NCBI GenBank assembly: GCA_951406725.2
Contig: OX597825.1
Span: forward strand, 33,976,001 to 34,040,000
Origin: Octopus vulgaris
Lineage: Eukaryota
DNA: 64,000 nucleotides
Direction: 5' to 3'
The notes below the pieces were generated by a model. That model searched no databases and had not been told where the DNA came from. It saw only the letters and a program-made list of their open reading frames with translations. The first letter of the stretch is position 1, and the number at the start of each line of letters is the position of its first letter. Both the position numbers and the translations under genes were made by a program. Positions 15,249-61,059 of the stretch are shown here, piece after piece.

Positions 15249-15341
15249 TCAATTTAACATTGTCACAAATATGAAAACCAGTGTTAAAACTTTAACAATG
15301 AATATTATATTATTCTGCTTGTTCCAGTCGGATTTTTCTGT
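15249..15341 (-). CDS. Candidate hydrophobic terminal exon of cassette 1
   Basis: TEKSDWNKQNNIIFIVKVLTLVFIFVTMLN*; same stop position as the copy at 28840, with an in-frame 3-nt indel in the hydrophobic part. Confidence 0.35.
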   Translation of the reverse strand, partial: TEKSDWNKQNNIIFIVKVLTLVFIFVTMLN

Positions 15342-15797
15342 CTGTCACACTTTGGTCATCAAGGGAGATTATAACACAAATATAGAAGTATACATAACAA
15401 AAGAGAAGAAAGGGAGAAGGGGAAAATAAAAAACAGGAATAGTAGCATCAGTGAAAGAATAAAAAAGAAAAATATGATATGAAGAAGATTGAGTTAAACG
15501 AGTCCTATCTTAAGTATATTGATGAATCTGTGTCTATCTGGGTAGCAAGCAGGATGGTAGAATATGAGAGATGATTGGTGTTGCATAAATGTCCAGATTT
15601 TAAGTTGGTAGAACTAATTTACAGAAAAAGTTTTGTGAGTAAATGTTTTAAACTAGCAAAAGTTCAATTTGGATAAACCAAATGTAGTGTGATTCAAGAC
15701 AGTGTATTATTATATAAATCTGGTTATAAAGACCAATCCATCAATGTAAAAATTAAATCAAAGAAAATTTCATTTGGGAAATACATTTGAAAAGGAT

Positions 15798-15835
15798 TTA
15801 AGAATAGTGTATACAACTTGTTATGAGGACTGCAA
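15798..15835 (-). CDS. Candidate short terminal exon of cassette 1 ((V)AVLITSCIHYS*)
   Basis: Same acceptor as the 30103 copy; usage uncertain. Confidence 0.3.
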
Positions 15836-16471
15836 CTAAAATAAAGCAAAAGTAGGTGTAACTTTTTTAGTAACTGACATAGGTCATTTAAATTGTATAT
15901 GTTGGTACTATAACACTTCCATAGTAATGCTTTTTTCTCGTATTATTCCTCTTCATTAAGGCAGCAAACTGGAAGGATTGTTAGCTGGATGGACAAAATA
16001 CTCAGCAGCATTTTGTCCATCTTATGTTCTGAGTTTAAATGCTGCATGAGTTGACTTTGTCTTTTTTGGTTGATGAAATAAGTACCAGCTGTGCAGTGGG
16101 ATCACTGTAATCGACTAGACACCTCCCTTAAAATTTCTGGCATTGTATCTATAGTAGAAAGGATTATTCTTCTTCATTGTAAACAAATAATAGGTTTCAA
16201 GGAGAAATAGGGTATTGCTACTGATTTCTTGAAAAAGTGGAGCTGCAGGCTGAGAAGGCTACAGGTTGTTGACAGCGATGACACAATTCACATAGCGATC
16301 ACTGAAAGAATGAAAAACGAAAAAATATATCAGAAGGTGATTGAGCTAAAAAAGTCCTATCCTATGTATGGACAGATGGATGAATATGGACAATATGAAC
16401 GGATGGATGAAGAAGTTTATAGAAGGGGAAACTAGCATTCCATATACACTTTAAATCAAAGAAATACATAC

Positions 16472-16591
16472 CAAGAACTGATGTTGATGTATTTTCTTCT
16501 GAATCTGTTTGTTCATCTGGTGTAGTAATTGTCATTATGTTAGGGGTACTGTCATATGGAGTATATGAAATAGTTGGTTCCTTAACATTAT
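16472..16591 (-). CDS. Cassette 1 exon D (stalk); acceptor reads AA instead of AG
   Basis: 120-nt open homologue of D2 ([39 protein letters not shown]) with intact GTATGT donor, but acceptor is gtccAA. Confidence 0.5.
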
Positions 16592-16759
16592 TTGGACATT
16601 AAAAAAAAGTTGAGCGTATAAATCTTTCTCCTTTTACTAAATATGTGTGTGTGTGTGGGTGTATATGTGTATTTGGGGGTGAAAATGTGTGCAAGTATAT
16701 ATGTATATGTGTGTGTATATATATATATATTTAAACCAAGAGAGAAGATGGAGATAAGA

Positions 16760-18000
16760 TAACCAACACATCCCCTCCTTCAAATGAGCCCACAACCTAC
16801 GAGACCCCTTGGTCCACAGCTTCTTCCCCAACCCAACCTCCCTCGTTCCCCTGCTCCTGCCCATGCTGCGGCACTTGCCCTTACCTCTCCAACACCACCC
16901 CCTCACCGATACCCATCATCGATCCTATCACATCACCAACTCCTTCACCTGCACTTCTACCAATATCATCTATTGCATCTCCTGCTCTCTCTCTGCCATT
17001 CGCTGTACATCGGACAAACAGGACACCGCTTGGCTGATCAGTTCACGGGACACCTCCAAGACATCCGCCTCAGCAATGACACCCCAGTCTCATGTCATTT
17101 CCTCTCTACCAGTCACTCTTTGCAACACTTGTCCGTGATTGGATTGTCCTTGCACAGAGGCCATCTGGACTCCCGTTTGCACCGTGAACAGGGATTAATC
17201 TTTTCTCTTTGTTCCTTTGTGCCACATGGGCTCAACTCTCCTCCCCTCTTCATCTAACCTCATCCCCTTGCCTCTTTCCCCCTCCCTCCAACTTCCTCCC
17301 ACCCACCTCTCCTCTCTTGCTCCGACTCCTACTTCTCTTCTCTCCTACTTCTCTTCACCCCTACTCTCTTTCTCTCTTACCCACCTTCCCCTTCCCCTTC
17401 ATCGTCAACACTCCCCATAAGCCCACCTCACCCCTACACATTCCTACCCCACCTTTCTTATCCCTCCCATCCCACCCCATCCCATCTCTTACACCCTCTC
17501 CCAAATACCCCACCCTCAGCCTAGCCCACACCCTACCTGTGCTTTCCCCACTCTCGCCTCCCCCACCTCCTAACACCATCACACCTACACCATACCACAC
17601 AACACATCACATCACAACACACCACCACACACACATCAGCACTGACCAATTTCCATCCCCACATTTTCACACCTACACATACACACACGCACACGTCAAG
17701 ATCACCAGCTCTCTTTCACAGGCACATACATACTCTCTTATACACACGCGCACTTTCGTTTTGGTAGCACTACTACTTTCTTATCTCCCCTACATCCCTT
17801 CTGTCCGGCATTCACCATGATAGATCGGTAGCCACTACACACATTTTTTTCTCTCCTTGTTTCTTTCTGTGTTCCTTTCTGTGGAAGAGCTTAGGCTCAA
17901 AATGTTAAAGACTTTTTCAATTCCTGAGCGTTATACTAATACATTTGTTTGTTTTCTACACCACCTGTCTTCGTCTTTTGCTTTTTTCATGAATTCTCCC
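16760..18000 (+). mobile_element. Penelope-like element 3' part (GIY-YIG)
   Basis: FTCTSTNIIYCISC...LYIGQTGHRLADQFTGH; long pyrimidine tract; terminus before (TA)n. Confidence 0.85.
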
Positions 18001-18024
18001 TATATATATATATATATATATATT

Positions 18025-18525
18025 TATAGTTGAAAATATGTGGAAAACATATAAAAAGTGGAAGAGAAATGCTTTCGTTTCACATATTTTAATATCTTTT
18101 TATAAAGAAAATCTTTAAAAATATATACATATTTTATGGATGTAGTGATATCCAACAGGTTTTCACTATTTGAATTAGCTTTTCAAGGGACGTAGTTAAG
18201 TAATCAAGTCGTGTGACAAAGGGAGGAAACTAGTGACAAGGGGGACAACTAACTCCTCAGTATAATTTTTGAAGTGGTCAAGCTTGTATATTAAGATGTG
18301 GTCTGTACTTTCGTATGAAAAGGCTTTCCTTGTTTAGGTGTTCTTGTAAGGAGATTATTTCTTGCACATCTGTCAATATGTTCGCTCAGGGCTATCTTCC
18401 TGCATTGAGGAAAACGAATCTGTTCTTTATGCAGTATGACTTTGCATCTCAAGGTAAGACTCATTTGGCCCACATAATTGTGGCGACAACCTGAGCAGGT
18501 TAGGACATAGATAAGGTTCTGGGAA
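18025..18525 (-). mobile_element. Penelope-like GIY-YIG fragment
   Basis: [20 protein letters not shown]...HKEQIR. Confidence 0.8.
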
Positions 18526-18676
18526 GCACACACACACACGCACACACATATATACGTTTTGCAAGATTCTTGATGTGAATTCGTGTGTTGACCCTCCCCA
18601 AATACAACAATATATATATATATATATATATGTATGCATGTATGTATATATATATATATGTGTGTGTGTGTGGGTG

Positions 18677-18781
<105 letters not shown>

Positions 18782-18815
18782 CTCGCTAACTACATAGACA
18801 TATGATATAATTTAC

Positions 18816-18909
18816 CTGTGGGATGTAGTTTACAGCCTTTTTCTTCAGCACCAGGGTTACTGAGTATGCATTTATAATTAGCTGAAGTATTCAAGTTCAT
18901 CAAATTAAT
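18816..18909 (-). CDS. Cassette 1 exon C (PLAT-like)
   Basis: tctttgcAG / GTAAAT, 94 nt; INLMNLNTSANYKCILSNPGAEEKGCKLHPT. Confidence 0.75.
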
Positions 18910-19001
18910 CTGCAAAGAATTGAAATAAAAATGTAAACTATGTTGCATGTAACACACACCCAACACACACACACACATACAAACACACATATGTATGTAT
19001 A

Positions 19002-19053
<52 letters not shown>

Positions 19054-19165
19054 ACAAGAAAAAAGCAACAAGAATGGATTAATTTTTCAGTACAATATAT
19101 ATATATATATATGGTCTTACTCATGCATGGACATTGATGATGATGATGATATATATATATATATA

Positions 19166-20150
19166 CTAGCAGAAATAATCAGCACTGCCCGGGTTAATGG
19201 AAACAATGAAATTTTAAAATGCCTTTTCTATCTCTAATATGAAACATAGACTACACAGGTCTCACCTGTTAGAAGCTGAGATACCAACTTTATACGTTAA
19301 CAACCTGGCATTTCCCACGTTATTGAAAATAATGAAATTTAAGTATTCTTTTAAAACTTTAAGGAAAATGAAACATGGATTATGCAGTTCTCAATAGTGA
19401 TTACCTGAGGTACCAACTGTATATGTCATTAACATGTTTTGTCTGATGTTCTCACTGTTAAGATTGTTAAAAAAGCAGGAAGTTCTTTGTCCTTGCAATC
19501 ACTTTCAATTGTCTTTGCTTATTTAAAACACATTGAACTCGAAAATGCATAATTTTGAAAACAATTGCCCTCCAGGCGCTCTTTTCCTATTGATAAATAC
19601 ATTTCACAAAGTTCTATCAGATGACATGAGTATAAACAAGTGTATTGAAACAAATCAGGAAATCAGTCACCGTTTAATTATGTACAGCTTTTAAATATAC
19701 AATGTTTTGTGAGTGTCCTTTGGTTGGTGTATAAATGAAACATCCTCTATATATTTGCCCATGAGAGAAGCAAAGAAATCAAGGTGAGGTCCAACAACCT
19801 TGAGAGATTGTCCTTGAGATTAGTTTATTGACATGGCGAAACTTAGTTTCACTGGGAACTGGAATCATTTCAATTCAAAGGGGAGGTCATATGGAATTAA
19901 CAGGATCCGTAGAATGAAGACATCCTCACTCTTATATTTCCCAGTCAATTGTTGCCTCTAGGACATGGGGTCACATTGCTTTCACCACTAGCCTGGTGCC
20001 ATTGCATCAGATGAGGTGGATCCAGGTTCCTGTGCAGCATGATTGGGGGAGGGCCTTTTTAAGTGGTGAAGTGGCATTCCATTTGGTTGTAGAGAGTTCA
20101 GGAACTCAGTTGGAAAAAGTACAGCCTGGTCCTGATCGAGAAGATTAATG
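19166..20150 (-). mobile_element. Helitron 3' part with decayed PIF1 helicase C-terminus
   Basis: FPTEFLNSLQPNGMPLHHL, NGTRL, QFPVKLSFAMSIN*SQGQSL; hairpin plus CTAG end at 19166. Confidence 0.85.
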
Positions 20151-20839
20151 GTTGGCGTTTGTGTAAGTGGGTTGTGTAAGTAGAGTGGGAATGGGGGATT
20201 TGGAAGATGCCCAAAAATTTTAACCCGTATTTGGGTGTATATGTGTGTGTTCATTTCTGTATGTTTTGGTTAATCACTTTGATGGTTCTCAGGTTGTGAT
20301 GATACCAGGACCAAAGGTGGGACATAGTTGGGCCCATAGGTATGATAATAATTTCTTTCATGTGGCTGAGGGCAAAGAATCCCATTCCAGCAGTTTAGGT
20401 AGATGTCCAATGCTAATATGAGTCTTTTTCACAGATAAACATAATTTGCATTTTCTGTTTTTATGTTTAATTTTTTATTTCTTTCAGTCATTTTTACTGT
20501 AGTCCTGCTGTGACACTACCTTGAAGGGTTTCGTTGAGAAAACAGGCCCCAGTTCATATCTTAAGTCTGGTGTATATTCTACTGGTCTCTTTTGCTGTTT
20601 CATAGGAATGTAAACAGAAACCAACACAAAGACAGATCCATATATATCGGATGGTGAATAGATGCATCCCCACCACGCGTAGGGATTGTTCTCCTTTTGT
20701 TTTGAAATTATATAGATCAACTAATGAATATGTTTTTTTATTATGATGTAATGTACTCACTCATCAAATTTTTAAAAATGCGTAAGAAACTGCTGTAATG
20801 AACTGACATTTATGAATTTTTTATTTGCTATATAAGTGA

Positions 20840-20894
<55 letters not shown>

Positions 20895-20895
<1 letters not shown>

Positions 20896-21190
20896 CATGA
20901 CTGTAAAGCAGTAAGCTTGCTTTGCACCTGCATGGTTCGTGGCTCAATCCTACTGCATAAAACCTTGGGCAAGTTCCTTCTACTATAACCTCAGGCTAAT
21001 CAAACCTTGTGATAGATAGAAACTGAAAGAAACCCATCGTATATATGCATATGTGTGTGTGTGTGTGTGTATGCGTTCATGTGTGGTGTGCATGTGTGTG
21101 TGTGTCCCAGCACTGCTTGACAAATGTTGGTGTGTTTACATTCCCTATATCATAGTGGTTTGACAAAAAAGAAACCGATATAATAAGTAT
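20895..21190 (+). mobile_element. tRNA-derived SINE
   Basis: Same family as 8690-9000, 31113-31400, 39380-39540 and 43100-43430. Confidence 0.7.
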
Positions 21191-21739: not shown

Positions 21740-23230
21740 TGACCTATTGCACCTGTGAAGATAGGTACAAATGTGAATTCACAGTCAAGGTACAAGAGTT
21801 ATAAGCTTCACATTAATTGGCTATTAATGTTCTCTTTTTCCTGGACATTTGATTGTACATTTACATCCACTGGGCAGCTGACATCTACAACAGTAAATGA
21901 CTTTTGTTCCCTGTCCCACCTAACAATATCAGGTCTGTTATGTTTGCACTGAAATTATGCTTTTATTGAAGTGTTCCACGAGTATTTCTTGCTCTTGAAA
22001 GTGTGAATACCTTCTGGTTCTAACATGCCTTTAATATATACATCAGAGCAGTCTTTCTTGCAGATAGCATTGTAAATAGCCTTTGTAACTATATCATGCC
22101 TCAGGGACAGGTAGTATCTCATAGACATTTTGGAGCAGCTGCTTATGATGTGGCTGATATCCTTCACACTGGAATAACAATACTACCCATTTTTTTAACA
22201 CGTTATGGAGGTTTTGTAGTATCTTTGTCTCTCTTGTTTAGCAGGTATTTAATAGATATCTCATCTTTCTGAATAGCGAAGGTATATCCTTCTAGGTGGA
22301 ATGTAATGTATCTATCGTGGGCCTAGGAGGGACTGCTCTTCCTGTCAATACAGTTGTTGCTCTCTAGCTTATGGGATATGTAGCCCATGCATTGCTTTTT
22401 GCTGGTATTATGATGCCTGCTTCTCCTTCAAGCTTCTGCTTAAGATGGCCAGTCCAGTCTCCATTGGGTTGCATAAGATAGCTGTATGCTCAGAGTACCT
22501 ACACAGTAGTTCTCCAACTCTGACGATGTTGTTGCTCTCCCTTTTGAGTATGCATAGAATGTACTCATCTCTTTCTTTACTGTTCAGCAGGTGTTGTCTG
22601 AATGAAACAATGCAAATTCCAAAGGTTGTTTGGACTAACCCTATGCCTCTACCATCATCATTTCACCTCACATATATCCTATTGGTGTTGTTGTTAATGT
22701 GGAAGTTGCCAGTGGTGGTCAGTACCTTTCTGGTTTTGATGTCCAAACTGCATATCTCATCAAATGTCCAATCCAATATCCCAAATGTTGGTATTAGCAA
22801 TGGTGCTGCAAAAGCATTGTGAGATATGGTCTTGTTAAATACAGACAGCCCTGACTTCCATATTTTCCAGAGTCTACAGAAGTACTTTGTTGTTTTCTTG
22901 GCTTTAGTCACAACACCAACATATGCAACATTCTCATCGATTCCGAGGTACTTGTAGCTTTCATCAATAGAAATTGTGGAGATGACAAGCTGTTGACATT
23001 CATGTTCTCTGTCTGATCAACAATCTTTCCTTGATTGACTATCATGTATAAGCATTTATCTAGCTTAAACTCCATTCCTATATCTCATGTAGCCTTGGTA
23101 TTCGGTTAACAGGGCCAACAAGGGATACACTGCCAATGCAAACAGTATTACAGATAAATAAAGACTATTGCCCTGGAATATGTCTGTTGATAGTTCTAAC
23201 TCTGTTTGTAACAACAGGTGTTGCTTTAGC
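21740..23230 (-). mobile_element. R4/Dong-like (RLE) non-LTR retrotransposon 3' part
   Basis: YKYLGIDEN, KIWKSGLS.FNK, DIKTRKVLT, HIISSC..RHD knuckle region, PDIV...VDVSCP RLE motif. Confidence 0.8.
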
Positions 23231-23747: not shown

Positions 23748-23813
<66 letters not shown>

Positions 23814-23844
23814 TTAAAAATGAGAATTCTATCCAAATACTTAC

Positions 23845-24101
23845 ACTTTCCAATCTCCAACCAGATACAAATCCTTTAAAGAAATTTTTCACCCTTTCAT
23901 TTAATTTTAAATCTGTTACTGGATCAATTTGAGAAGTGCAAAAATCAAAGCTTGGTTGAGATCCCCTTTCACATTTATTTGCACAAGATAATGTGTTTGA
24001 GAAAACACTTGTTTCATCATTGATTAATTGAACAGTGAAATAATTTGAGGTTCCAGACAAAAGTTTCCTTGAAATATAAAATGTGATTCTCCAGCAGTAA
24101 T
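23845..24101 (-). CDS. Cassette 1 exon B (PLAT-like)
   Basis: tttcatttcAG / GTAAGT, 257 nt, open; (D)[20 protein letters not shown]...[11 protein letters not shown]...GWRLES. Confidence 0.75.
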
Positions 24102-24735: not shown

Positions 24736-24739
24736 GATA

Positions 24740-28480: not shown

Positions 28481-28839
28481 ACATTATTGAGTGTGCCACA
28501 ACATGATGCTAGGTGTGCTGCACATAATTTTGTTCCCTATACTTTTAGTTATATTTTTAGTTCAGGTGTGCCACCGAAATTTGAAAAGAATATAAGTGTA
28601 GCACAAATAAAAAAAGACTGAGGAGCACCGGTCTACAGGAGGTGAATTTCTAGCTAAAAAGTATTAGTGACACAAAATGTTTGGAAATTCCTCACTGAAG
28701 AAAATTCCTTGGTGATACATGGTAAATAAGGCAGTTTTGTTTAGTTAGAAATTACAGCTGAATGTTTATTGTTTTGATTCCGAAGTGAATTTAATGAGTG
28801 AATGTGAACGAGACACAGACTTTTCCTAGAAACAACAGT

Positions 28840-28926
28840 TCAATTTAATATTGTCACAAGTATGAAAACCAGTGTTAAAACTTTAACAATTATAATATTA
28901 TTCTGCTTGTTCCTGTCTGATTTTAT
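28840..28926 (-). CDS. Candidate hydrophobic terminal exon of cassette 2 (GPI-signal-like)
   Basis: IKSDRNKQNNIIIVKVLTLVFILVTILN* downstream of a long AG-free pyrimidine tract; acceptor ambiguous. Confidence 0.4.
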   Translation of the reverse strand: MKSDRNKQNNIIIVKVLTLVFILVTILN

Positions 28927-30741: not shown

Positions 30742-30861
30742 CAAGAACTGGTGCTGGTGTAATTTCTTCTGAATCTGTTTGTTCATCTGGTGTAGTAGTT
30801 GTCATTATGTTAGTAGTACTGTCATATGGAGTATATGGAATAGTTGGTTCCTTAACATAAT
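30742..30861 (-). CDS. Cassette 2 exon D: Thr/Pro/acidic stalk
   Basis: ttttctaatgctcAG / GTATGT, 120 nt, phase 1-1; (D)[39 protein letters not shown]. Confidence 0.75.
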
Positions 30862-35091: not shown

Positions 35092-35185
35092 CTGCGGGGT
35101 TTAGTTTACACTCTTTTTCATCAGCACCAGGGTTACTGAATGTGCATCTATAATCAGCTAAAGTATTCAAGTTCATCAAATGAAT
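35092..35185 (-). CDS. Cassette 2 exon C (PLAT-like)
   Basis: 94 nt, intact AG/GT; IHLMNLNTLADYRCTFSNPGADEKECKLNPA. Confidence 0.75.
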
Positions 35186-37879: not shown

Positions 37880-38255
37880 AAATAGCTGTTTGCTGGTGTG
37901 ATGCCTTCTTCTCCTTCAAGCTTCTGTTTAAGATGGCCAATCCAGTCTCCATTGGGCTGCATAATATGGGTGTATTCTCAAAGTACCTATACAATAGTTC
38001 TCCAACTCTGACGATGTTGTTACTCTCCCTTTTGAGTATGCATAGAATGTACTCATCTCTTTCTTTACTGTTCAGCAGGTGTTGTCTGAGTGATACAATG
38101 CAAATTTCAAAGGTTGTTTGGACTGACCCTATGCCTCTACTGTCATCATTTCACCCTACGTATATCTTATTGCTGTCGCTGTTAATGTGGAAGTTGCCAG
38201 TGGTGGTCAGTACCTTTCTGGTTTTGATGTCCAGACTGCATATCTCATCAAATGT
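37880..38255 (-). mobile_element. Remnant of the R4/Dong-like element (cassette 2 copy)
   Basis: Collinear with 22390-22765. Confidence 0.8.
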
Positions 38256-38617: not shown

Positions 38618-38865
38618 ACTTTCCAATTTCCAAGCAGCTGTAAGGAAATTTTTTACCGTTTCATTTAATTTTAATTTTTTTACTGGATCAATTCGTGGAG
38701 TGCAAAAATCAAAGCTGAGTTGAGATCCCCTTTTACGTTTATCTGCACAAGATAATTTATTTGTGAAAACACTTGTTTCATCATTGATTAATTGAACATT
38801 GAAATAATTTGAGGTTCCAGACAAAAGTTTCCTTGAAATATAAAATGTGATTCTCCAGCAGTAAT
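38618..38865 (-). CDS. Cassette 2 exon B (PLAT-like)
   Basis: tttcAG / GTAAGT, 248 nt, i.e. an in-frame net 9-nt deletion versus the other copies; (D)YCWRITFY...NFLTAAWKLES, no stops. Confidence 0.75.
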
Positions 38866-42612: not shown

Positions 42613-42701
42613 TTATTTTTTACTGGTTTCATTTGTTGTAGTAATTGTCCTTATTTTAGGAGTACTGTTATATGGAGTATAACAGTACTCCTTGACATTA
42701 T
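42613..42701 (-). CDS. Cassette 3 exon D: Thr-rich tail ending in stop
   Basis: cttttaacgcccAG acceptor; (D)NVKEYCYTPYNSTPKIRTITTTNETSKK*, with the stop overlapping AATAAA. Homologous to exons D1/D2. The spliced product from 60781 would be 185 aa. Confidence 0.65.
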
Positions 42702-45122: not shown

Positions 45123-45216
45123 CTGTGGGATTTAGTTTACAGCCTTTGTTGTCAGCATCAGGGTCATCGAGTGTGCATCTATAATTAGCTGAAGTATTCA
45201 AGTTCATCAAATTAAT
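45123..45216 (-). CDS. Cassette 3 exon C: C-terminal part of PLAT-like domain
   Basis: ttttttgcAG / GTAAAT, 94 nt, phase 0-1; INLMNLNTSANYRCTLDDPDADNKGCKLNPT. Confidence 0.8.
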
Positions 45217-45426: not shown

Positions 45427-45475
<49 letters not shown>

Positions 45476-45622: not shown

Positions 45623-47046
45623 TTTCAAATCTAAAAATAATCAATATTTTTAAGATATAAATTTAAAATGACTAAAAAATATAAATATTATAAATTTATC
45701 AATGAAAAAATATATATATAATCTATATATAATCTATATATAATCAAGAACTAAAATAACCTCTATAAACAATTGAATATAATGAAACCTAGTATTTAAG
45801 TTCTCATATTTAAAGATGAAGAATCTAAATTCAAAAAACAAAAAAACAAAAAGCAAAAATTAAAATATAAATACACACATACTCATACACATATATCTAA
45901 GTATATATATAAACATATCTAAATACATACACTAACTCACACACCCATATATATATCTCTATACATACACATAAACATCTAGGCAACGATAAATTAATAA
46001 AGTAGCCGTATACTTCTACACATTACTTATTCATACTCCCACACACACACATACAACCCTCATTCATAAACACACTCACTCAGCATGACAACAACACAGA
46101 GGAAACACCACATCCAGCAGCCGCAGATACTCAACCACAACCCACAGAAACATTTCATTCTTAGCAAGAAACTACCAAATACCATATACCACATATATAC
46201 AACAACCATACATAAATACTTAAAACAAACACACACACACACATATTCTAAATACCGCATGCATGCAACAAACATACACAAATACGCAAACAAACACACA
46301 CACACGCACACATTCACACATACATAAACACCCAAAAGAAAACAACATTTCTACACATAAACAATGCACACCCCCACACACACACACACAATCACTCACA
46401 CACAACCGCACTCCCACCGCAACACTCCAACACAGAGGAGTAACAAATTCAGCAGATACATACACTCAGCCACACACATACAGGAACATTCCCTACTCAG
46501 CAATATACTGTTAAAAACACCAACACCACTCTAAAACAAATTTATGAATAGGAATAATAACTTATATAAGATTATTCTATTATTAAACATAACCTAAACC
46601 ATTTAAAACGAACCTATCTATTTATCAAAGTATGTCTAAATTATTTAATAACTAATAACAAAGAAAAATACGATAAATAGATCACTACATAAACAACAAG
46701 ATTAACATAAGGAGAATATATTATTCAAAAGCTTATACATATTAAAATTACAATTTATATCATCATCATCATCATCATCATTTAACGTCCGCTTTCCATG
46801 CTAGCATGGGTTGGACGGTTCAACTGGGGTCTGGGGAGCCCGAAAGCTGCACCAGTCCAGTCAGATCTGGCAGTGTTTCTACAGCTGGATGCCCTTCCTA
46901 ACGCCAACCACTCCGAGAGTGTAGTGGGTGATTTTATGTGCCACCGACACAGGTGCCAGACGAGGCTGGCAAACGGCCACGCTCGGATGGTGTTTTTTAT
47001 GTGCCACCGACACAGGTGCCAGACGAGGCTGGCAGACGGCCACGCT

Positions 47047-49693
47047 CGGATGGTGTTTTTATGTGCCACCGACACAGGTGCCAGATGAGGCTGGCAAACG
47101 GCCACGATCGGATGGTGTTTGTTACGTGCCCACAGCACGGAGGCCAGTCGATGCGGTACTGACTACGGCCACGTTCGGATGGTTTTCTTGTGTGCCACGT
47201 GCCACCGGCACTGGTACCACAAAGATACAAATTCCATTGATGTTCATCTATTTTGATTTGTTTTGATTTGATTTGATTTTGATTTTCACTTGCCTCAACA
47301 GGTCTTCACAAGTGTCACAAGAAGGAAGGTATGCACAGGTGGACTGACTAGTCTTGCCGGGTCTTCGGATGGTGTTTTTATGTGCCACCGACACAGGTGC
47401 CAGATGAGGCTGGCAAACGGCCACGATCGGATGGTGTTTGTTACGTGCCCACAGCACGGAGGCCAGTCGGTGCGGTACTGGCTACGGCCACGTTCGGATG
47501 GTTTTCTTGTGTGCCACCGGCACTGGTACCACAAGATACAATTCCATTAATGTTCATCTATTTTGATTTGTTTTGATTTCATTTTGATTTTCACTTGCCT
47601 CAACAGGCCTTCACAAGTATCACAAGGAGGAAGGTATGCACAGGTGGACTGACTACGTCCCAGGTAGGGGCCATGGGATATGGCCTGACTAGTCTTCCCG
47701 GGTCTTCGGATGGTGTTTTTATGTGCCACCGACACAGGTGCCAGATGAGGCTGGCAAACGGCCACGATCGGATGGTGTTTGTTACGTGCCCACAGCACGG
47801 AGGCCAGTCGGTGCGGTACTGGTTACGGCCACGTTCGGATGGTTTTCTTGTGTGCCACCGGCACTGGTACCACAAGATACAATTCCATTAATGTTCATCT
47901 ATTTTGATTTGTTTTGATTTGATTTGATTTGATTTGTTTTGATTTCATTTTGATTTTCACTTGCCTCAACAGGCCTTCACAAGTATCACAAGGAGGAAGG
48001 TATGCACAGGTGGACTGACTACGTCCCAGGTAGGGGCCATGGGATATGGCCTGACTAGTCTTGCCGGGTCTTCGGATGGTGTTTTTATGTGCCATCAACA
48101 CAGGTGCCAGATGAGGCTGGCAAACGGCCACGATCGGATGGTGTTTGTTACGTGCCCACAGCACGGAGGCCAGTCGGTGCGGTACTGGCTACGGCCACGT
48201 TCGGATGGTTTTCTTGTGTGCCACCGGCACTGGTACCACATGATACAATTCCATTAATGTTCATCTATTTTGATTTGTTTTGATTTGATTTGATTTGATT
48301 TGTTTTGATTTCATTTTGATTTTCACTTGCCTCAACAGGCCTTCACAAGTATCACAAGGAGGAAGGTATGCACAGGTGGACTGACTACGTCCCAGGTAGG
48401 GGCCATGGGATATGGCCTGACTAGTCTTGCCGGGTCTTCGGATGGTGTTTTTATGTGCCACCGACACAGGTGCTAGATGAGGCTGGCGAACGGCCACGAT
48501 CGGATGGTGTTTGTTATGTGCCCACAGCACGATGGCCAGTCGATGCGGTACTGACTACGGCCACGTTCGGATGGATTTCTTGTGTGCCACAGGCACTGGT
48601 ACCACAAAGATACAAATTCCATTGATGTTCATCTATTTTGATTTGATTTGATTTTCACTTGCCTCAACAGGTCTTCACAAGTGTCACAAGAAGGAAGGTA
48701 TGCACAGGTGGACTGACTAGTCTTGCCGGGTCTTCGGAAGGTGTTTTTATGTGCCACCGACACAGGTGCCAGATGAGGCTGGCGAACGGCCATGATCGGA
48801 TGGTGTTTGTTACGTGCCCACAGCACGGATGCCGGTCGATGCGGAACTGGCTACGGCCATGTTCGGATGGTTCTCTTGTGTGCCACCGGCACTGGTACCA
48901 CAAAGATACAGATTCCATTGATGTTCATCTATTTTGATTTGTTTTGATTTTGATTTGTTTTGATTTTGATTTTCACTTGCCTCAACAGGTCTTCACAAGT
49001 GTCACAAGAAGGAAGGTATGCATAGGTGGACTGACTACGTCCCAGGTAGGGGCCATGGGTTATGGCCTGACTAGTCTTGCCGGGTCTTCGGATGGTGTTT
49101 TTATGTGCCACCGACACAGGTGCTAGATGAGGCTGGCGAACGGCCACGATCGGATGGTGTTTGTCATGTGCCCACAGCACGGAGACCAGTCGATGCGGTA
49201 CTGGCTACGGCCACTTTCGGATGGTTCTCTCTTGTGTGCCACAGGCACTGGTACCACAAAGATACAAATTCCATTGATGTTCATCTATTTTGATTTGTTT
49301 TGATTTTCACTTGCCTGAACAGGTCTTCACAAGTGTCACAAGAAGGAAGGTATGTACAGGTGGACTGACTACGTCCCAGGTAGGGGCCACGGGTTATGAC
49401 CTGACTAGTCTTGCCGGGTCTTCGGATGGTGTTTTTATGTGCCACCATGTTCCCACAGCACGGAGGCCAGTCGATGCGGTACTGGCTACGGCCACGTTCG
49501 GATGGTTTTCTTGTGTGCCACAGGCACTGGTACCACAAAGATACAAATTCCATTGATGTTCATCTATTTTGATTGATTTTCACTTGCCTCAGCAGGTCTT
49601 CACAAGTGTCACAAGAAGGAAGGTATGCACAGGTGGATCGACTACGTCCCAGGTAGGGGCCACGGGATATGGCCTGACTAGTCCTGCCGGGTC
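47047..49693. repeat. Eight tandem ~270-366-bp copies of the RTE stop codon plus proximal 3'UTR
   Basis: Junction gccgggtcttcgga recurs at about 47367, 47708, 48073, 48439, 48735, 49089 and 49423. Confidence 0.92.
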
Positions 49694-51720
49694 CTCTCAT
49701 GCACAGCACACTTCCATAGGACTCGGTCTTCAGTCATTTCCTTGGTGAGACCTAAAGTTCGAAGGTCGTGCTTCACCACCTCGTCCCAGGTTTTCCTGGG
49801 TCTACCTCTTCCACAGGTTCCCTCAACTGCTAGGGTGTAGCACTTTTGCACACAACTATCTTCAGCCATTCTCGTCACATGACCATACCAGCGCAGCCGT
49901 CTCTCTTGCACTCCACAACTGACACTTCTTAGGTTCAACTTTTCTCTCAAAGTACTTACACTCTGACGATTATGAACACTGACATTACACATCCATCGGA
50001 GCATACTGGCTTCATTTCTTGCAAGCTTACGCATATCCTCAGCAGTCACGGCCCATGTTTCACTACCATGTAGCATGGCTGTACGTACACACGCATCATA
50101 TAGTCTGCCTTTTACTCTTAGCGAGAGGCCTTTTGTCACCAGCAGGGGTAAGAGCTCTCTAAACTTTGCCCAGGCTATTCTTACTCTAGCAGTTACACTT
50201 TCAGCACACCCACCCCCGCTACTGACTTGGTCTCCTAGGTAGCGGAAGCTATCAACTACTTCTAGTTTGTCTCCCTGGAACGTGGTAGAAGTTGGTCTCT
50301 GCACATTTCCAGTGTTTATTGCTCCTGAGCATCTGCCACAGACAAAAACTATTTTCTTAGTTAGCCTTCCTTTGACATTGCTGCACCTCTTATGTGTCCA
50401 TAGCTTACACTTGGTGCACCTTATAGAGTTTCTACCTACACCTTTTTTACAGATCGAGCAGGGCCATCTACATGAAGTCGTTTGTGATTGGTCCACCTTC
50501 CTACTTATTAGGACTTTGGTTTTGGCTAGGTTGATTCTAAGGCCCTTCGGTTCTAATCCTTGTTTCCACACCTGAAACTTCTCCTCCAGTTCTGATAGTG
50601 ACTCAGCAATTAGAGCAAGGTCATCAGCATAGAGGAGCTCCCAGGGGCATCCTGTCTTGAATTCCTCCGTTATTACCTGGAGGACTATGATAAATAGGAG
50701 GGGACTGAGGACTGAACCTTGGTGGACCCCAACCTCTACCCGGAATTCTTCACTGTACTCGTTGCCAACCCTCACCTTACTAGCAGCGTCTCTGTACATG
50801 GCTCGCACAGCTCTCACTAACCATTCATCTATCCCTAGTTTCCTCATTGACCACCAGATAAGGGATCGGGGGACCCTGTCAAAGGCTTTCTCCAAGTCAA
50901 CAAAAGCCAGATACAAGGGCTTATCTTTGGCTAGGTATTTCTCCTGCAGCTGTCTTACCAGAAATATAGCATCAGTAGTACTTTTCCCTGGCACGAACCC
51001 AAACTGCATATCATCTAAGCTAACTCTCTCTCTAATTAATTGGGCTATAACCCTCTCCGTAACCTTCATTACCTGATCCAGCAGCTTGATGCCCCTGTAG
51101 TTATTTGTATCTAGGGCGTCGCCTTTACCTTTGTAGCAGTTGACTATTATGCTGCTACACCAGTCATTGGGTATGACTCCTTCGTGTATCACCTGGTTTA
51201 CTATACGGGTGACTAAGCTATAGCCGACACTACCAGATATTTTGAGCATCTCTGCAGTAATTCCTGATGGGCCTGGGGCTTTCCCTGTTTTCATGCTTCT
51301 AATTGCCTTATCTACTAAGGAACTGTTAACTCGGATTGCTGGTCTCTCTGTTGGGTCGACATTCGGGAGACTCTCTTTATCCCATTCATTTTCCTCATTC
51401 AGCAACCTTTCATAGTGGCATCTCCAAGCCTCTCTCTTTGCATCCTCATTTAGCGCAAGTGAACCGTCATCCTTGCGAACATATTTCTCTCCTACCACGT
51501 CACGATTCTCTCTCACACACTGTCTTGCAACACGAAATACCTCAAGTCTTTCATCCTCACGGCGCAGGACATTGGCAAATTTTTCTTTATCTGCCTCCCC
51601 TCTGGCTAGATAGACCTGTCTCCTAGCTTCCCTTCTGGCAGTCTGATACACTTCCCTGCTACCACCGTTCTTCCAGGCCTTCCAAGCCTGTTTCTTTTGT
51701 CTAATAACCCTGTCAACAAT
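49678..51720 (-). CDS. RTE reverse transcriptase (5'-truncated) with PHD-like Cys/His insert
   Basis: 657-aa ORF-track entry, open up to ~51720; QFGF, DLEKAFD, HQGSVLSP, YADD, CSIC...CTKC...H..C...CGRC, GRPRKTW. Confidence 0.93.
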   Translation of the reverse strand: MVDRVIRQKKQAWKAWKNGGSREVYQTARREARRQVYLARGEADKEKFANVLRREDERLEVFRVARQCVRENRDVVGEKYVRKDDGSLALNEDAKREAWRCHYERLLNEENEWDKESLPNVDPTERPAIRVNSSLVDKAIRSMKTGKAPGPSGITAEMLKISGSVGYSLVTRIVNQVIHEGVIPNDWCSSIIVNCYKGKGDALDTNNYRGIKLLDQVMKVTERVIAQLIRERVSLDDMQFGFVPGKSTTDAIFLVRQLQEKYLAKDKPLYLAFVDLEKAFDRVPRSLIWWSMRKLGIDEWLVRAVRAMYRDAASKVRVGNEYSEEFRVEVGVHQGSVLSPLLFIIVLQVITEEFKTGCPWELLYADDLALIAESLSELEEKFQVWKQGLEPKGLRINLAKTKVLISRKVDQSQTTSCRWPCSICKKGVGRNSIRCTKCKLWTHKRCSNVKGRLTKKIVFVCGRCSGAINTGNVQRPTSTTFQGDKLEVVDSFRYLGDQVSSGGGCAESVTARVRIAWAKFRELLPLLVTKGLSLRVKGRLYDACVRTAMLHGSETWAVTAEDMRKLARNEASMLRWMCNVSVHNRQSVSTLREKLNLRSVSCGVQERRLRWYGHVTRMAEDSCVQKCYTLAVEGTCGRGRPRKTWDEVVKHDLRTLGLTKEMTEDRVLWKCAVHERTRQD

Positions 51721-52429: not shown

Positions 52430-52560
52430 TCAGGCATCACACATGGCTGGCCAAGGATGTAATGTAACGTTTTTCAGGAATCCTACAAGATAAACTGTGG
52501 TTGTACAGGCGCTGCTTAAAGGCAGTTTCGGTCAACCCGATATAGCTCCAAAATTGAGTA
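52430..52560 (-). mobile_element. Penelope-like GIY-YIG fragment
   Basis: SYIGLTETAFKQRLYNH...TSLASHV. Confidence 0.75.
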
Positions 52561-53999: not shown

Positions 54000-55450
54000 T
54001 GCAAAATTGTTGGTACATATCCTATTGCACCTGTGAAGATAGGTACAAATGAGAATACAGTCAGGGTACAAGAGCTGTAAGTTTCACATTTGCACTGAAA
54101 TTATGATTTTATCGAAGTGTTCCACTAGTATTTCTTGCTCTTGAGGGTGTTATAGCATGCCTTTAATATATACGTCAGAGCAGTCTTTCCTTTGGATAGC
54201 ATTGTAAATAGCCTTTGTAACTATATCATGCCTCAGGGACAGGTAGTATCTCATAGACATTTTGGAGCAGCTGCTAATGATGTGGCTGATATCCTTCACA
54301 CTGGTATAACAATACTACCCATTTTTTTAACACGTTATGGAAGTTTTGTAGTATCTTTGTCTCTCTTGTTTAGCAGGTATTTAATAGATATCTCATCTTT
54401 CTGAATAGCGAAGGTATATCTTTCTAGCTGGGATGTAATGTATCTATCGGGATCCCAGGAGAGACTGCTCTTCCTGTCAATACTATTGTTACTCTCTATC
54501 TTATGGGATATGTACCCCATGCATTGCTTTTTGCTGGTATTATGATGCCTGCTTCTCCTTTTCAAGCTTCTGCTTAAGATGGCCAGTCCAGTCTCCATTG
54601 AGTTGCATAATATGGGTGTATTCTCAAAGTACCCACACAGTAGTTCTCCAACTCTGACGATGTTGTTGCTCTCTCTTTTGAGTATGCATAGAATGTACTC
54701 ATCTCTTCCTTTACTGTTCAGCAGGTGTTGTCTGAGTGATACAATGCAAATTCCAAAGGTTGTTTGGACTGACCCTATGCCTCTACCATCACCATTCCAC
54801 CTCACATATATCCTATTGGTGTTGTTGTTAATGTGGAAGTTGCCAGTGGTGGTCAGTACCTTTCTGGTTTTGATGTCCAAACTGCATATCTCATCAAATG
54901 TCCAATCCAATATCCCAAATGTTGGTATTAGCAATGGTACTGCAAAAGTATTGTGAAATATGGTCTTGTTAAATGCAGACAGCCCTGACTTCCATATTTT
55001 CCAGAGTCTACAGAAGTACTTTGTTGTTTTCTTGGCTTTAGTCACAACACCAACATATGCAACATTCTCATCGATTCTGAGGTACTTGTAGCTTTCATCA
55101 ATAGAAATTGTGGAGATGACAAGCTGTTGACATTCATATTCTCTGTCTGATCAACAATTTTTCCTCGATTGACTATCACATATAAGCATTTATCTTGCTT
55201 CAACTCCATTCCTTTTTCTCGTGTAGTTCTAACTATCTCTTGATGCTGATCATATTACACTTTAGGTCATCAAGAAAAATGTGTGGATGACATATTCTTT
55301 CCTGCATATCCCAGCATGTAGCCTTCGCATTTTGTTAACAGGGCTGACCAGGGATTCACTGCTAATACAAACAGTATTACAGATAAAAAGATTATCACAG
55401 TAGAATATATCTGTTGATAGCTTAACTCTGTTTGTGCCAACAGGTGTTAC
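54000..55450 (-). mobile_element. R4/Dong-like element (cassette 3 copy)
   Basis: Near-identical to 21740-23230; includes HIFLDDLKV RT motif region. Confidence 0.8.
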
Positions 55451-55641
55451 TTTAGTTGATTATGTTCTACATTAAAAGGAGATATCTTTATATCCTTATA
55501 TTTATGTACCTGTTTCATTACCTGGATTGAAAGTTGTGTGAGAAAGTAGCCAAAGGGCTCGATACCGCTATGTTATCATCCAAATTGGAAACAGGAACTT
55601 TTGAGTAACATGATGATGCTGCAAAATCACACACATGCACA

Positions 55642-55672
<31 letters not shown>

Positions 55673-55780
55673 GCGCATGCACACACATGCACGCACACAC
55701 ACACACACACACACGCATGCACACACACACACACACACACACACACGGATTAAAAATGAAAATTCTATCTAAATACTTAC

Positions 55781-56037
55781 ACTTTCCAATCTCCAATCAG
55801 ATACAAATCCTTTAATGAAATTTTTTGCTGTTTCATTTAATTTTAATTCTTTTACTGGATCAATTTGTGGAGTGCAAAAATCAAAGCTTGGTTGAGATCC
55901 CCTTCTACATTTATTTGCACAAGACATTTTATTTGAGAAAACACGTGTTTCATCATTGATTAATTGAACATTGAAATAATTTGAGGTTCCAGACCAAAAT
56001 TTCCTTGAAATATAAAATGTGATTCTCCAGCAGGAAT
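55781..56037 (-). CDS. Cassette 3 exon B: N-terminal part of PLAT/LH2-like domain
   Basis: tttcAG / GTAAGT, 257 nt, phase 1-0. (D)[27 protein letters not shown]...[11 protein letters not shown]...DWRLES resembles PLAT motifs AGT-x-N-V-x-I, FERGS-x-D-x-F and GW-x-LES. Confidence 0.8.
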
Positions 56038-57999
56038 CTGAAACAAAACAGCATAAGATAATGTTTATTACACAGACTGACTGTTTGCAACAATACTGTT
56101 TGTATACATTTTATCTTTTATTTTTTTCAGTCATTGAACTGCAGCCATGCTGGGGTACTTCACACAAACCTAGCTCTTCAGGTTTAGGCGACCGAATGGA
56201 GAGAGGGAGGAAATTCAGCATGGCTACTGGAGATTGGGCTGCTATTGGTCAAGGTGGGTCACATAGTGACGTTGATTAGGATTGAACAATCCTTATGTGT
56301 TTGTGGCATATGGATGGTTATTATGAGTGAGAATCTTAAACGAAACCAAATGCTGGTGCATGTGGAGGAGGGAGTAAGCTTGATGTGTGAATGCATGAAT
56401 GTGCACATGTGGTGTGCATGTGTGAGTGTATGTGTATGCACACACATATGCGGTTGAGTTCATTGGTGAATGTGTACAAGTTAGCTTGTGCATGTGTGTG
56501 TGTATGTTTACTTGGGTGCACGAACGTGTGGCTATGGGTAGGTAGGAGCTATGTATGTGTGTTTGTGCACACACATGTGTGTGGGGGTGGGTATACATGT
56601 GCATAAATATATGCTCTATGTATGCATGCATGTATGTTTGTATGCATGCATGTATGAATGTGTGTGTGTGCATATAAATATGCCTGCTCTACATGAATAT
56701 GTACATCATTGTATTTGTATGTGTATGTATATGTGCGTGTGTATATTTACACTTATACAAATATACATGCATATATTTAAATCAAAATAAGCAACAAGGA
56801 TATGCTTATTTTGATTCTAATCACCTTATTTTGAAATTTTATGGATAATACCGTACCAAATTTCTGGTGCCTCAACTCACGTACCATGTTCATCTAAATC
56901 TAAATTTTTACATCTATTTAAATATGTATACATATGTACACATACTTATGCACACATATACGTGTGTAACTGGTTGAATGTGGATTCATTCTTTAATTGG
57001 AATGGTTTCCAAAAGGATTTCTAACATTGATTCTTCATACTTTGCTGAGAGTTTACTGGTGTAAATTGGCAAAGATATGAACAATAGTATTAGAATATCA
57101 AGTGTATGATTAATTTATGGAATGAAGTTCTACAAATCTAATCATATTTGTCGAAAATAGAGGAGATAAGATGTTAAAAAGGTTTAAGAAGTTTATTCAT
57201 GCATACAATTGTTTCGTACATAGATGTAAATTCATATTTGAATTTGGAAATTATCATAGTACTCATCAGCATAGAGAAAAAAAGAGCAGAGAAGTTGGAT
57301 CTATGAGTTTCATGTTTAACTGTTCCTATCTATGTGTGATAGTGATGAGAGTCATGTCAATTATTAAACCACAACTAACGGATGAACGGTTAAGAGATGA
57401 TATAAATATAGAGATATCAATAACACTCTATAGATTAGTAAAGATTTGCTAATTAACTCTCCAAGTATGTGCACAGAGTGAGTAAGTTAGAGAAATGTCC
57501 AATGAGGAAATGTTACCTAAAGTAAATTAAATCTGACCGTTAAAAACAATACTTGGTTTGTTTTTTTTAAATCATAAACAGATGAAGAAAGTTTAGTGCA
57601 AAGAAATTATGTTTGTAAAGCTTATAATAGAAAGTTAATGAAGTCATTTATGAAAATATAGGGGGAGGTGGAGGAATTGAAAAAATGAAGTGAAAGTGGA
57701 TTAAGGACTCTTGTTTACTCAAGATTCATATTATGGTAACATGGAGGTATAACAAAGGAGAAAGTGAGAAAAAGTGGTAATTCAAATGGAAATATGATGA
57801 TTAAGGTTGTATTATACTTACAAAGTCTATTGTTAGGAATAGAGATAAGAGAACATTTAGGAGATGTAGTAAGAAGAGAAGTATAGAAGCGATAAGCTAA
57901 TGAATTAGAGAGGGTGAAAAGGAAACGAGATTTTACTAGAGTAGGGGAGATAAATAAGAAGAAAAAATAATAATGATCAAGTATGAGATGTAATGAGTG

Positions 58000-58250
58000 G
58001 AGGCATGTGGCTTAGTGGTTAGGGTGTCAGCACCATGATCGTAAGATTGTGTTTTCGATTCCTGGACCGGGCGACGTGTTGTGTTCTTGAGCAAAACACT
58101 TCATTTCACATTGCTCCAGTCCAATCAGCTGGCAAAAATGAGTAATGCTGCGATGGACTGGCGTCCCGTCCAACTGGGGAACACATACGCCATAGAAACC
58201 GGGCCCATGAGCCTGGCTAAGCTTTAAAAGGGCGCATTTATTTATTATTT
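58000..58250 (+). mobile_element. Full-length tRNA-derived SINE
   Basis: A box tggcttagtgg, B box gttttcgattcc, (TTA)-type tail. Confidence 0.8.
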
Positions 58251-58996
58251 TATGTAATGAGACAAGTGAATGTTAAAAATAAAAGAGAGATTAATGATAA
58301 AAGTATTGAATGTGTAGGATAATGCTATACAAAAGGAATATTTTGTATATATAAAAAGTTATGTCAAGAGTATTATGTGAGAAGGATAGGGTATGGCTAT
58401 ATTTTATCATAATGAATGTTATATACATGTTATATAGGTTCAATGCATGTAAATATATTAAAAATAATTATTATTATGATCTACAAGTAGAAGATACTTG
58501 TAGGGGTACGTATAAAGTTACAAAATTATAGGATAAATGCTTATCATATATGGAGTAGAGTGAATGTATATGCAATCACATATGTATATAGAGATATATA
58601 TGCACATATAAGCATATAGATACACAAATATATACATATACATACACACTATATACACATGAATAATTAGGGAACTGGCAGAATTGTTTGAGGATTGGAT
58701 AGGCTGCCTTGATGTATCTGTTCTAGCACTGTGCATTTTGAACCCAAATTCTACTTCATCAGGAAAAAATAGTGACACATCTGTCAGGATTTGTAGCCAA
58801 TAGATAGTAACTGCTATTTTGGGAAAACAATGGAAATGTAAGGAAATGTAATTTCCTGAATTTGATATCTCTATACGTTTATTAATATTTTGCTAAAACT
58901 GAAGCAGATGATGGTACAATATTAAAAAAATAAACAATATCCAATTTGGTAGCACACTGCAAATATGCTTAAAACAAATATTATTTTAATACATAC

Positions 58997-59068
58997 CTTT
59001 TGGCATTGGGTTGTTCTGTATTTGTAGATCTTTTGCACTCTTGTAATGTTTATTCTGATCCACGGAGC
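58997..59068 (-). CDS. PLAT-like gene, 72-nt linker exon ((S)SVDQNKHYKSAKDLQIQNNPMPK)
   Basis: attctttAG|...aaag|GTATGT; symmetric phase 1-1, open, joins the signal exon and exon B in frame. Confidence 0.7.
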
Positions 59069-59399
59069 CTAAAGAATTATTGATAATTAGTGTCAGAAAT
59101 TGGAGAAAAAAACTTCATTTGATGAAAAATTGATACTATTCAAAAGACTGTCAAGGTCAACTTTGCCATTCATCCTTTCAGGGTCAACAAAATAAGCACC
59201 AGTTGAATATTGGGTTCAATGAAATGGACATATACTCTCCACTAAAATTGCTGGCCTTGTGCCAATATTAGAAATCAAAATTAAAAATCAATATTATTTC
59301 AAAGTTTTTCTGAATATTAGTTGTATCTTTCATGTCAATGGTTGTTATTAACTGTAGTGTTATCCTATTGATCTAGATATTTTTAACAGAAATTTTATC

Positions 59400-59810
59400 C
59401 TTTGGCTCCCATGCCGGTGGCATGTAAAAAGCACCATTTGAGCATGATCTTTGCCAGCAATGCCTTACTGGCACATGTGCTGGTGGCACGTGAAAAACAA
59501 CATTCGATCATGGTTGTTGCCAGTGCCGCTGGACTGGCTCCCATGCAGGTGGCATGTAAAAAACACCTTTCAGCATGGTCATTGCCAGTACCACCTGACT
59601 GGCCCTCATGCTGATGGCATGTAAAAAGCACCCACTACACTCTTGGAGCGGTTGGCATTAGGAAGGGCATCCAGCTGTAGAAACTTTGCCAGGTCAGATT
59701 GGAGCCTGGTGCAGCCGTCTAGCTTGCCAGTCCTCAGTCAAACCATCCAACCTGTGCCAACATGGAAATCAGACGTTAAATGACGACGACAATGATGATG
59801 ATGATGATGA
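59400..59810 (+). mobile_element. RTE 3'UTR fragment
   Basis: Internal ~55-bp repeats, ggaagggcatccagctgtagaaac, (GAT)n tail. Confidence 0.8.
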
Positions 59811-60735
59811 TATTACTTGTTCCAGTTTTTAAACTGTAGCCATGCTGGGGCACATCTTTGAAGAATTTTGGTCAAAGGAATGAAGTCCAGTATTTAGTTT
59901 TTCTTATTCAGCCTATTGCTCATTCTGTTAGTTCCTTTTGCTGAATTGGTAAGTTATAGGGGCATAAACAAACTAACATGTGTTATCAAGTGGTGGTGGA
60001 GACAAATACAGACACACACATATATGTATGCTATACACAGCCTCTCGCACTCTCACACATATACACACGTCCACACACACACACATATACATAAATACAC
60101 ATACACACACAGGTGCACATTATTTTAAACTCACACAAGCATACATTCACATTTTTCTTAACTCTCTCTCTCTCTCTCTGCCCAAGTAAACCATGTACCT
60201 CCTCTACAGCGAGGCATCTGTTTCTGTTTTTCTGTCTCCATGTCACTCTAACCTTTTATCATCTAACAGAAGCTCACCTCCTCCAATGTCCCCTTCCCTC
60301 ACGAAGATTTCTTGTCTTACAAGTTACTTGGTGACCCTGCCACTTAAAAAGTACCCAGAGCATCCAGCTGTAAAAACCATGCCTAAACTGACCTCATCTG
60401 TGCTGGTGCAACATAAAAAGTGCTCAGCCCACTCTATGAGGTGGTAGCCGTTAGAAAGGGCATCCAACCAAACAAACCATGCCAAAACAGACACAGACGT
60501 TTAGTGGAGTCACCTACCTGGTGAGCTTCTGTCAAACTGCCCAGCCCACGCCAAGATGGAAGGTAGATGTTAAATGACAGCAATGATGATATATATATAT
60601 ATTAATATACACACACACAGAATTATGATAATGCAACTGAAATGTAATATTGTGGCATTATATAAAAATGAAATGATGAGATGAAAATTATTATTTTAAG
60701 AATTCATGAAAGAAGTTATGAGTTAGAATACTTAC

Positions 60736-60781
60736 TGTAAGCTATTTGCAGGAGAGAAAGCAAAATGAAAATGCGATTCAT
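60736..60781 (-). CDS. PLAT-like gene, first coding exon (signal peptide MNRIFILLSLLQIAY)
   Basis: Minus strand reads ttttatttactttcAG|att ATG...tac a|GTAAGT: strong acceptor 3 nt before ATG, consensus phase-1 donor, hydrophobic core typical of a signal peptide. Confidence 0.75.
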
Positions 60782-61059
60782 AATCTGAAAGTAAATAAAA
60801 TATTTGAATGACTTTTTGCAAATAGAGAAAATATATCACACTTTATTGAAAGTCAGAACAATTACTCAGAATTTCCCATTACAAATATTATCTCAAGAAG
60901 AAATTAAATTCTTTGAAAATGGGTTAAAATTTACACCCACTCCAAAAACGCTACAAAGATGAACATGAATTAAAGATTGTCTACACCTACATATGTTTCC
61001 TTTCCTTATACGTTATATATGTGTGTGTGTGTTAGCCTCCTGCTAACTTATGTACAGAC

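Follow-up and report, generated by a model that had tools for sequence, protein, structure and literature searches.

A stretch of 64,000 nucleotides (nt) of Octopus vulgaris DNA (G000:C12:33976001-34040000; the whole stretch is referred to here as the window) carries a gene, with every exon on the minus strand, in which one signal-peptide-like leader is followed by three cassettes, numbered 3, 2 and 1 in reading order, each encoding a PLAT-like domain. The leader is encoded by exons A1 and A2, each domain by a pair of exons, B and C, and a stalk by exon D (Table 1). We propose, with a probability of about 0.7, that this gene is spliced as leader-B3C3-B2C2-(D2)-B1C1-VIAM, VIAM being the end encoded by a short terminal exon, T; the predicted product would be a secreted protein of at most 431 amino acids with three PLAT-like domains.

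A sequence-only reading of the window had described a single leader upstream of three intact cassettes, each with B, C and D and compatible in phase. B and C were indeed found three times each, with open frames and GT/AG splice sites (B of 257, 248 and 257 nt, C of 94 nt). The phases were confirmed as well: phase 1 at the end of the leader, 1 to 0 across B, 0 to 1 across C and 1 to 1 across the stalk exon D2. The B+C block is a symmetric module, entered and left in phase 1, and all 12 ordered strings of B and C are open through to the terminal exon. The D exons, however, are not intact in all three cassettes: the acceptor of D1 is CAA, where the other 10 of the 11 D copies compared have CAG, and homology in D3 breaks off shortly before a stop codon, the break being likely a duplication junction. 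That reading had also overlooked the terminal exon at 16301, which is the sole VIAM-stop match in 614 kb, that is, in the window and 55 neighbouring stretches. The gene has one intact VIAM acceptor, which sits after the last cassette, and the 3′ untranslated region (UTR) of this exon likely extends to AATAAA at 15179.

Table 1. Exons and exon-like features of the three-cassette gene (window coordinates)
Feature	Position	Strand	Remarks
A1, first coding exon, signal-peptide-like	60736..60784	-	ATG at 60781; coding part 60781-60736, 46 nt; 8 copies in cluster
A2, second leader exon	58997..59068	-	72 nt, phase 1 to 1; single copy in window
B3, N-terminal three quarters of PLAT-like domain 1	55781..56037	-	257 nt, phase 1 to 0; 100% match in P0003
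C3, C-terminal quarter of domain 1	45123..45216	-	94 nt, phase 0 to 1
D3, truncated stalk exon	42613..42701	-	acceptor intact; homology lost at ~42628; stop at 42613; AATAAA at 42617
B2, N-terminal part of domain 2	38618..38865	-	248 nt; 9-nt deletion in frame; lacks one of six conserved cysteines
C2, C-terminal part of domain 2	35092..35185	-	94 nt
D2, Thr/Ser/Pro-rich stalk exon, intact	30742..30861	-	120 nt, phase 1 to 1; linker of domains 2 and 3; position shared with O. bimaculoides P0006
E2, possible alternative 3′ end	28840..28926	-	hydrophobic frame near 28917-28843; AATAAA at 28770; absent from annotated models
B1, N-terminal part of domain 3	23845..24101	-	257 nt
C1, C-terminal part of domain 3	18816..18909	-	94 nt
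D1, stalk-exon copy	16472..16591	-	dead acceptor (CAA); frame open
T, coding part of terminal exon (VIAM-stop)	16288..16301	-	TTTCAG/TG ATC GCT ATG TGA; same end in P0002, P0003, P0004, P0006, P0007
E1, hydrophobic open frame	15249..15337	-	in 3′ UTR of T or alternative terminal exon

How are these exons joined? Six gene models were counted, four from O. bimaculoides (P0002, P0004, P0006 and P0007) and two from O. vulgaris (P0003 and P0008); P0001 (O. sinensis) and models of other paralogues (P0005, P0009, P0013 and P0016) were left out of the count. In all six the leader runs into the first B, and two or three domains follow one another in a chain; five of the six end in VIAM. In none is the leader joined to a later cassette (B2 or B1), none consists of a single cassette, and none ends at D3, E2 or E1. 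When A1-A2-B3-C3-B2-C2-D2-B1-C1-T are joined, a chain of 431 amino acids free of internal stops results, and its global alignment with O. bimaculoides XP_014780935 (P0006, 434 amino acids) has 337 identical columns out of 434 with 3 gap columns. In P0006, one leader and three domains are followed by the VIAM end, and a stalk stands solely behind domain 2; this is the very route around the broken D3 and D1. Among the other O. bimaculoides models, P0002 lacks the stalk, and P0004 and P0007 lack the first C and the second B. The window exons are letter-identical to parts of both O. vulgaris models, P0003 holding B3C3-B2C1-VIAM and P0008 the full chain. The two species separated about 34 million years ago, as cited in 10.1101/2023.05.16.540928.

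An outline of how such a gene would have arisen and be expressed is as follows: a B-C(-D) exon block was presumably duplicated twice inside one gene, and because the phase is 1 on both sides of each B+C block, its copies can be chained without a frameshift. D3 and D1 are likely skipped, since D3 is truncated and D1 is without an acceptor. Skipping of further exons likely adds minor shorter forms, some with hybrid domains made of the B of one block and the C of another. As the gene is without the transmembrane and cytoplasmic exons of seven paralogues in the surrounding cluster, its product would be a soluble, multivalent member of the family.

Several points weigh against the chained three-domain product. 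All junction evidence comes from gene models, not from reads, and the O. vulgaris models may not be independent of the O. bimaculoides ones, because, according to 10.1101/2023.05.16.540928, the O. vulgaris annotation made use of an alignment of the O. bimaculoides proteome, with PASA supplying further splice forms; P0003 and P0008 would derive from a pipeline of this type. Both are fused to the upstream gene, and P0008 continues out of frame into the leader of the next gene. O. sinensis P0001 chains four domains of a type that here belong to separate transmembrane genes, and annotators may mis-join these paralogues, P0001 included. The last 10 nt are common to B2 and B1, for which reason the hybrid junctions could be short-read mis-mapping. 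The ratio of nonsynonymous to synonymous change (dN/dS) is 1.38-1.63 among the three cassettes, with no purifying signal, and 0.68-3.03, likewise without one, over all 36 pairs of nine family copies. B2 has the longest branch of the three, and cassette 2 may be relaxed because B2 lost one of the six conserved cysteines. The fold model described below was made on a homologue, P0009, with a mean predicted local distance difference test (pLDDT) score of 58.8, and not on the window protein. Finally, a single ancient triplication is not proven, because the three domains of the window group only weakly with those of O. bimaculoides (tree support 88/94) and domains 1 and 2 of O. bimaculoides pair with each other (97/88); parallel duplication or gene conversion is possible.

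Chaining had been the second choice of the sequence-only reading, whose first was a constant-5′/variable-3′ layout in which any single cassette could be attached to the leader, every cassette having its own 3′ end. The ends available for such a choice would be the D3 stop, D2-E2, or C1 with T or E1. The frames would permit splicing of the leader to any cassette, and D3 does offer a stop codon together with AATAAA. E2 and E1 are preceded by AG-free pyrimidine tracts of 134 and 145 nt, respectively, with AATAAA about 70 nt beyond their stops, and all 7 E copies keep an open frame, with solely in-frame indels in the last 25-27 codons. This hydrophobic frame resembles a glycosylphosphatidylinositol signal. 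However, both window copies of E require the third AG after the pyrimidine tract, and the frame read from the first CAG varies among paralogues; the cassette 2 homologue of the VIAM exon has AC in place of the AG acceptor; and the six annotated models contain neither the leader junctions nor the ends that such a choice entails. A shared docking site in the leader intron was not seen either, in a weak test on a single genome: for the three pre-B regions, the most stable RNA duplexes (-30.9, -39.8 and -34.0 kcal/mol, against -25.3 to -33.5 for 8 shuffles each) land on three different places. No protein homologue of the 50-codon stretch containing E2 was found among 13 candidates, which is again a weak test. 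Cassette choice by the leader is thus not favoured, and we consider it unlikely as the main mode, while the chained alternative fits all the models counted. Separate 3′ ends at D3, E2 and T/E1 are possible but unsupported, the annotated models using T alone, and E1 may simply lie within the 3′ UTR of T. Single-cassette forms could nevertheless occur as minor isoforms, because AATAAA signals lie near D3 and E2.

The short terminal exon after the stalk was also followed in the paralogues. Its AG is kept in three transmembrane paralogues (L043:6848-6576, L029:9603-9331 and L023:8347-8060), and therefore these three may have secreted isoforms, as judged from their splice sites. Five other copies read AC here; one further copy, cut by a stretch border, is outside this count.

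Might cassette 3 alone be in use, cassettes 2 and 1 being dead remains that unequal crossing-over left behind in an unstable cluster? Other partial units do exist there (one gene without B or C, another without A2), dN/dS is near or above 1, and D1, D3 and one B2 cysteine are damaged. The sequence-only reading had considered the frame kept in the leaderless copies hard to explain if they were dead, and the indels bear this out. Over the 3705 columns of six intron alignments there are 31 indels, 25 of which break the frame, whereas the aligned exon copies contain no frame-breaking indel, a single 9-nt deletion being the only length difference. A simulation of neutral decay, in which the cassettes are taken to die upon duplication and to gain indels at rates like those of introns, leaves B2, C2, D2, B1 and C1 with their splice sites all intact in 0.1-0.7% of runs at the frameshift rate of the neighbouring introns, against 6-14% when indels are ignored. 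In addition, the damage sits on elements that the O. bimaculoides chain omits too. Neutral decay of cassettes 2 and 1 is unlikely, and that only cassette 3 is used seems to us improbable.

The uniqueness of the leader, already noted from the sequence alone, was confirmed by nhmmer profile searches over the 614 kb, which gave eight A1 matches (next at an expectation value, E, of 0.54) and ten full A2-type matches, in each case with one in the window; nine matches to A2 were found genome-wide, again one in the window. In the same 614 kb, no A1 or A2 profile match lies in front of B2 or B1, and a conserved block that precedes 8 of 8 leaders in the cluster precedes neither of these two leaderless cassettes. 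That cassettes 2 and 1 are separate genes with unrelated first exons of their own is very improbable: all other units of the cluster are separate genes and an unrelated first exon would evade homology searches, but A1, A2 and the upstream block are missing before both cassettes, just ~2 kb separates the D3 break from the pre-B2 intron homology, and annotated models in two species attach the cassettes to one leader. Cassettes 2 and 1 are probably alive and reliant on the single leader.

The acceptor AG of A1 is kept in all eight copies (window 60785-60830). Because A1 carries an acceptor of its own, a non-coding first exon likely lies upstream of it, and the conserved block in L013:6784-9343 is where sequence would place it. 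One first exon common to the whole cluster was considered and ruled out, as each leader has its own homologous upstream block. The A1 acceptor is also the point at which gene models fuse neighbouring genes. Window positions 1-730 fall within the conserved block upstream of the next paralogue, and the leader of that paralogue is located 17 kb past the window start.

Genome-wide, nine B exons were found (E of 2.2e-36 or lower, next 0.75), all in C12:33.86-34.36 Mb. The cluster comprises eight leader-bearing paralogues over ~530 kb (G000:C12:33841380-34374826; L013-L067), seven on the minus strand and one on the plus strand. The transmembrane exon and the cytoplasmic exon have seven matches each in the cluster and none in the window; of the seven transmembrane units, six carry a single B+C domain and the seventh is without one. 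The seven cytoplasmic tails are open and tyrosine-rich; one is repeat-expanded, and the other six end in motifs like YVNS and YIDM. YxN and YxxM are SH2-binding motifs. An Atlas search with the transmembrane and tail region gave only leads below 0.9 (SCIMP, 0.86). The ancestral unit was likely a one-domain membrane protein, and the window gene likely arose through partial duplications spanning from the pre-B intron to D or shortly beyond.

The neighbouring units show further peculiarities. The adjoining upstream paralogue (L020:2486 to L015:6900) has A1, two A2 exons, stalk, transmembrane segment and tail, with no B or C, and if expressed it would be a domain-less, adaptor-like membrane protein; O. 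bimaculoides P0016 likewise starts with a leader and two A2-type exons. In another paralogue A2 is nearly gone, 23 nt of flank being left (L026:3508-3486), and A1 can join B directly in phase 1. In the tail of the plus-strand paralogue (L057:7580-8372), a tyrosine-bearing unit of 14 codons has been expanded in tandem. Across this cluster, public gene models either merge paralogues or break them apart. Inside the window, the B3-C3 intron holds a tandem array of ~350-nt repeat-derived units (47046-49696), and each of the three cassettes has a decayed retroelement-like stretch behind its B exon (54089-55226, 37882-38255 and 21943-23092; 94% between cassettes 3 and 1). From its presence in all three, this stretch would predate the duplications or have been spread by conversion.

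What is the domain encoded by B and C? No match to PF01477 above the Pfam gathering cut-off was obtained with six window exons, P0001-P0006 or P0009, and none of the 16 genome-wide PF01477 matches listed is on C12. Since Pfam missed it, the domain is classed as PLAT-like and not as a Pfam PLAT member. A search of 1.84 billion representative sequences gave 11 matches: five octopus proteins, four multi-PLAT proteins and two apparently spurious ones. The multi-PLAT matches, to proteins with 7-14 PLAT repeats, are weak (E of 3.9e-12 to 1.2e-5). No close relatives outside Octopus were found in the sequence searches made, and a sequence search of the PDB gave one irrelevant match (E of 0.041).

P0009, which is 71% identical to window domains 1 and 3, was modelled as a beta-sandwich of 8 strands over ~116 amino acids, and this model superimposes on solved PLAT domains, themselves eight-stranded beta-sandwiches. 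In VIA-align, ranks 1-9 were all PLAT-bearing proteins (Z of 9.7-6.8, root mean square deviation of 2.9-3.7, 104-115 residues aligned), the next having a Z of 5.0; Foldseek gave a probability of 1.00 to lipases and lipoxygenases, and an Atlas search concurred with PLAT at 0.91. The window domain is accordingly modelled, through its homologue, as having the PLAT fold. Two other candidates were set aside: a three-domain model built without an alignment (pLDDT of 54.1), whose Foldseek matches were sliding clamps with a TM score of ~0.1, and the UniRef label 'Ig-like domain' (immunoglobulin-like), unsupported by the fold searches.

The domain has six conserved cysteines. Loops 1-2, 3-4, 5-6 and 7-8 vary most, with a mean of 2.60 residue states per column against 1.38 in the other loops (p = 0.002) and 2.02 in the strands (p = 0.026), in a test on 13 domains whose columns and copies are not independent. 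From the topology, all of these variable loops would sit at the same end of the sandwich. Their nonsynonymous-to-synonymous ratio (1.33) does not exceed that of the strands (1.39), which speaks against loop-specific selection.

With respect to function, we tentatively suggest surface recognition (of lipids, microbes or self/non-self), where the soluble product of the window gene would be a partner of the membrane paralogues or a decoy for them; this role is deduced solely from architecture and rate of change. A more elaborate possibility, which we regard as doubtful, is an octopus-specific PLAT-fold recognition system in immunity or self/non-self discrimination, in which membrane receptors bearing hypervariable loops and tails with tyrosine motifs are accompanied by one secreted gene that would shuffle half-domains (any B to any later C, in 12 frame-compatible strings) into soluble multivalent binders or decoys. 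Literature searches of openly available papers, at the level of titles and abstracts, found no publication on this octopus family, and six family accessions or LOC identifiers were mentioned in none of the papers searched. New, then, are a PLAT-like ectodomain family in Octopus, its one soluble three-domain member and the possible half-domain hybrids. The interest lies in the family itself, an extracellular cysteine-rich PLAT-like domain on receptor-shaped proteins, with dN/dS near or above 1 and variation in alternate loops. If a recognition system with half-domain shuffling is real, it would be a testable candidate for cephalopod receptor diversification without antibodies; otherwise, the locus is a lineage-specific gene cluster with poor annotation, and its gene models are in need of repair.

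Comparison with known systems places these features. A variable-3′ layout, even if true here, is of a kind already known, since PMC6191721 describes Drosophila PGRP-LC, CG42235 and Pip as 3′ tandem cassette clusters and the PGRP-LC isoforms as alternative 3′ cassettes selected by competing RNA pairing. The octopus gene resembles PGRP-LC, as described there, in having one common 5′ part upstream of three duplicated recognition-domain cassettes, but its annotated products chain the cassettes and have one end, and no common docking site was seen. With the PLAT/LH2 domains (PF01477) of lipoxygenases, lipases and multi-PLAT proteins the octopus domain shares the predicted eight-stranded sandwich and the weak multi-PLAT matches; it differs in having no Pfam match, a signal peptide ahead and six conserved cysteines, and in the octopus paralogues it forms the ectodomain of a type I membrane protein without an enzyme domain. 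The PLAT domain of polycystin-1 is cytoplasmic.

In the module-duplication scheme of Patthy, extracellular multidomain proteins grow by internal duplication of symmetric exon modules with phase 1 at both ends, and the three phase 1-1 B+C copies that chain in frame behind one signal peptide fit this scheme. The octopus module differs in being split by a phase-0 intron, because of which the B of one copy can pair with the C of another, and such hybrids are annotated in both species (P0003; P0004 and P0007). In its splicing logic and layout, the window gene is an ordinary extracellular multidomain gene of symmetric exon modules. Clustered, fast-evolving recognition receptors with soluble members are represented by Hydractinia Alr, amphioxus VCBP and snail FREPs. 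The octopus family is like them in its tandem cluster, its dN/dS near or above 1, its variable loops, its combination of stalk, transmembrane segment and tyrosine-rich tail, and its one soluble member; those systems are built on immunoglobulin, chitin-binding or fibrinogen domains, whereas the octopus family is built on the PLAT fold.

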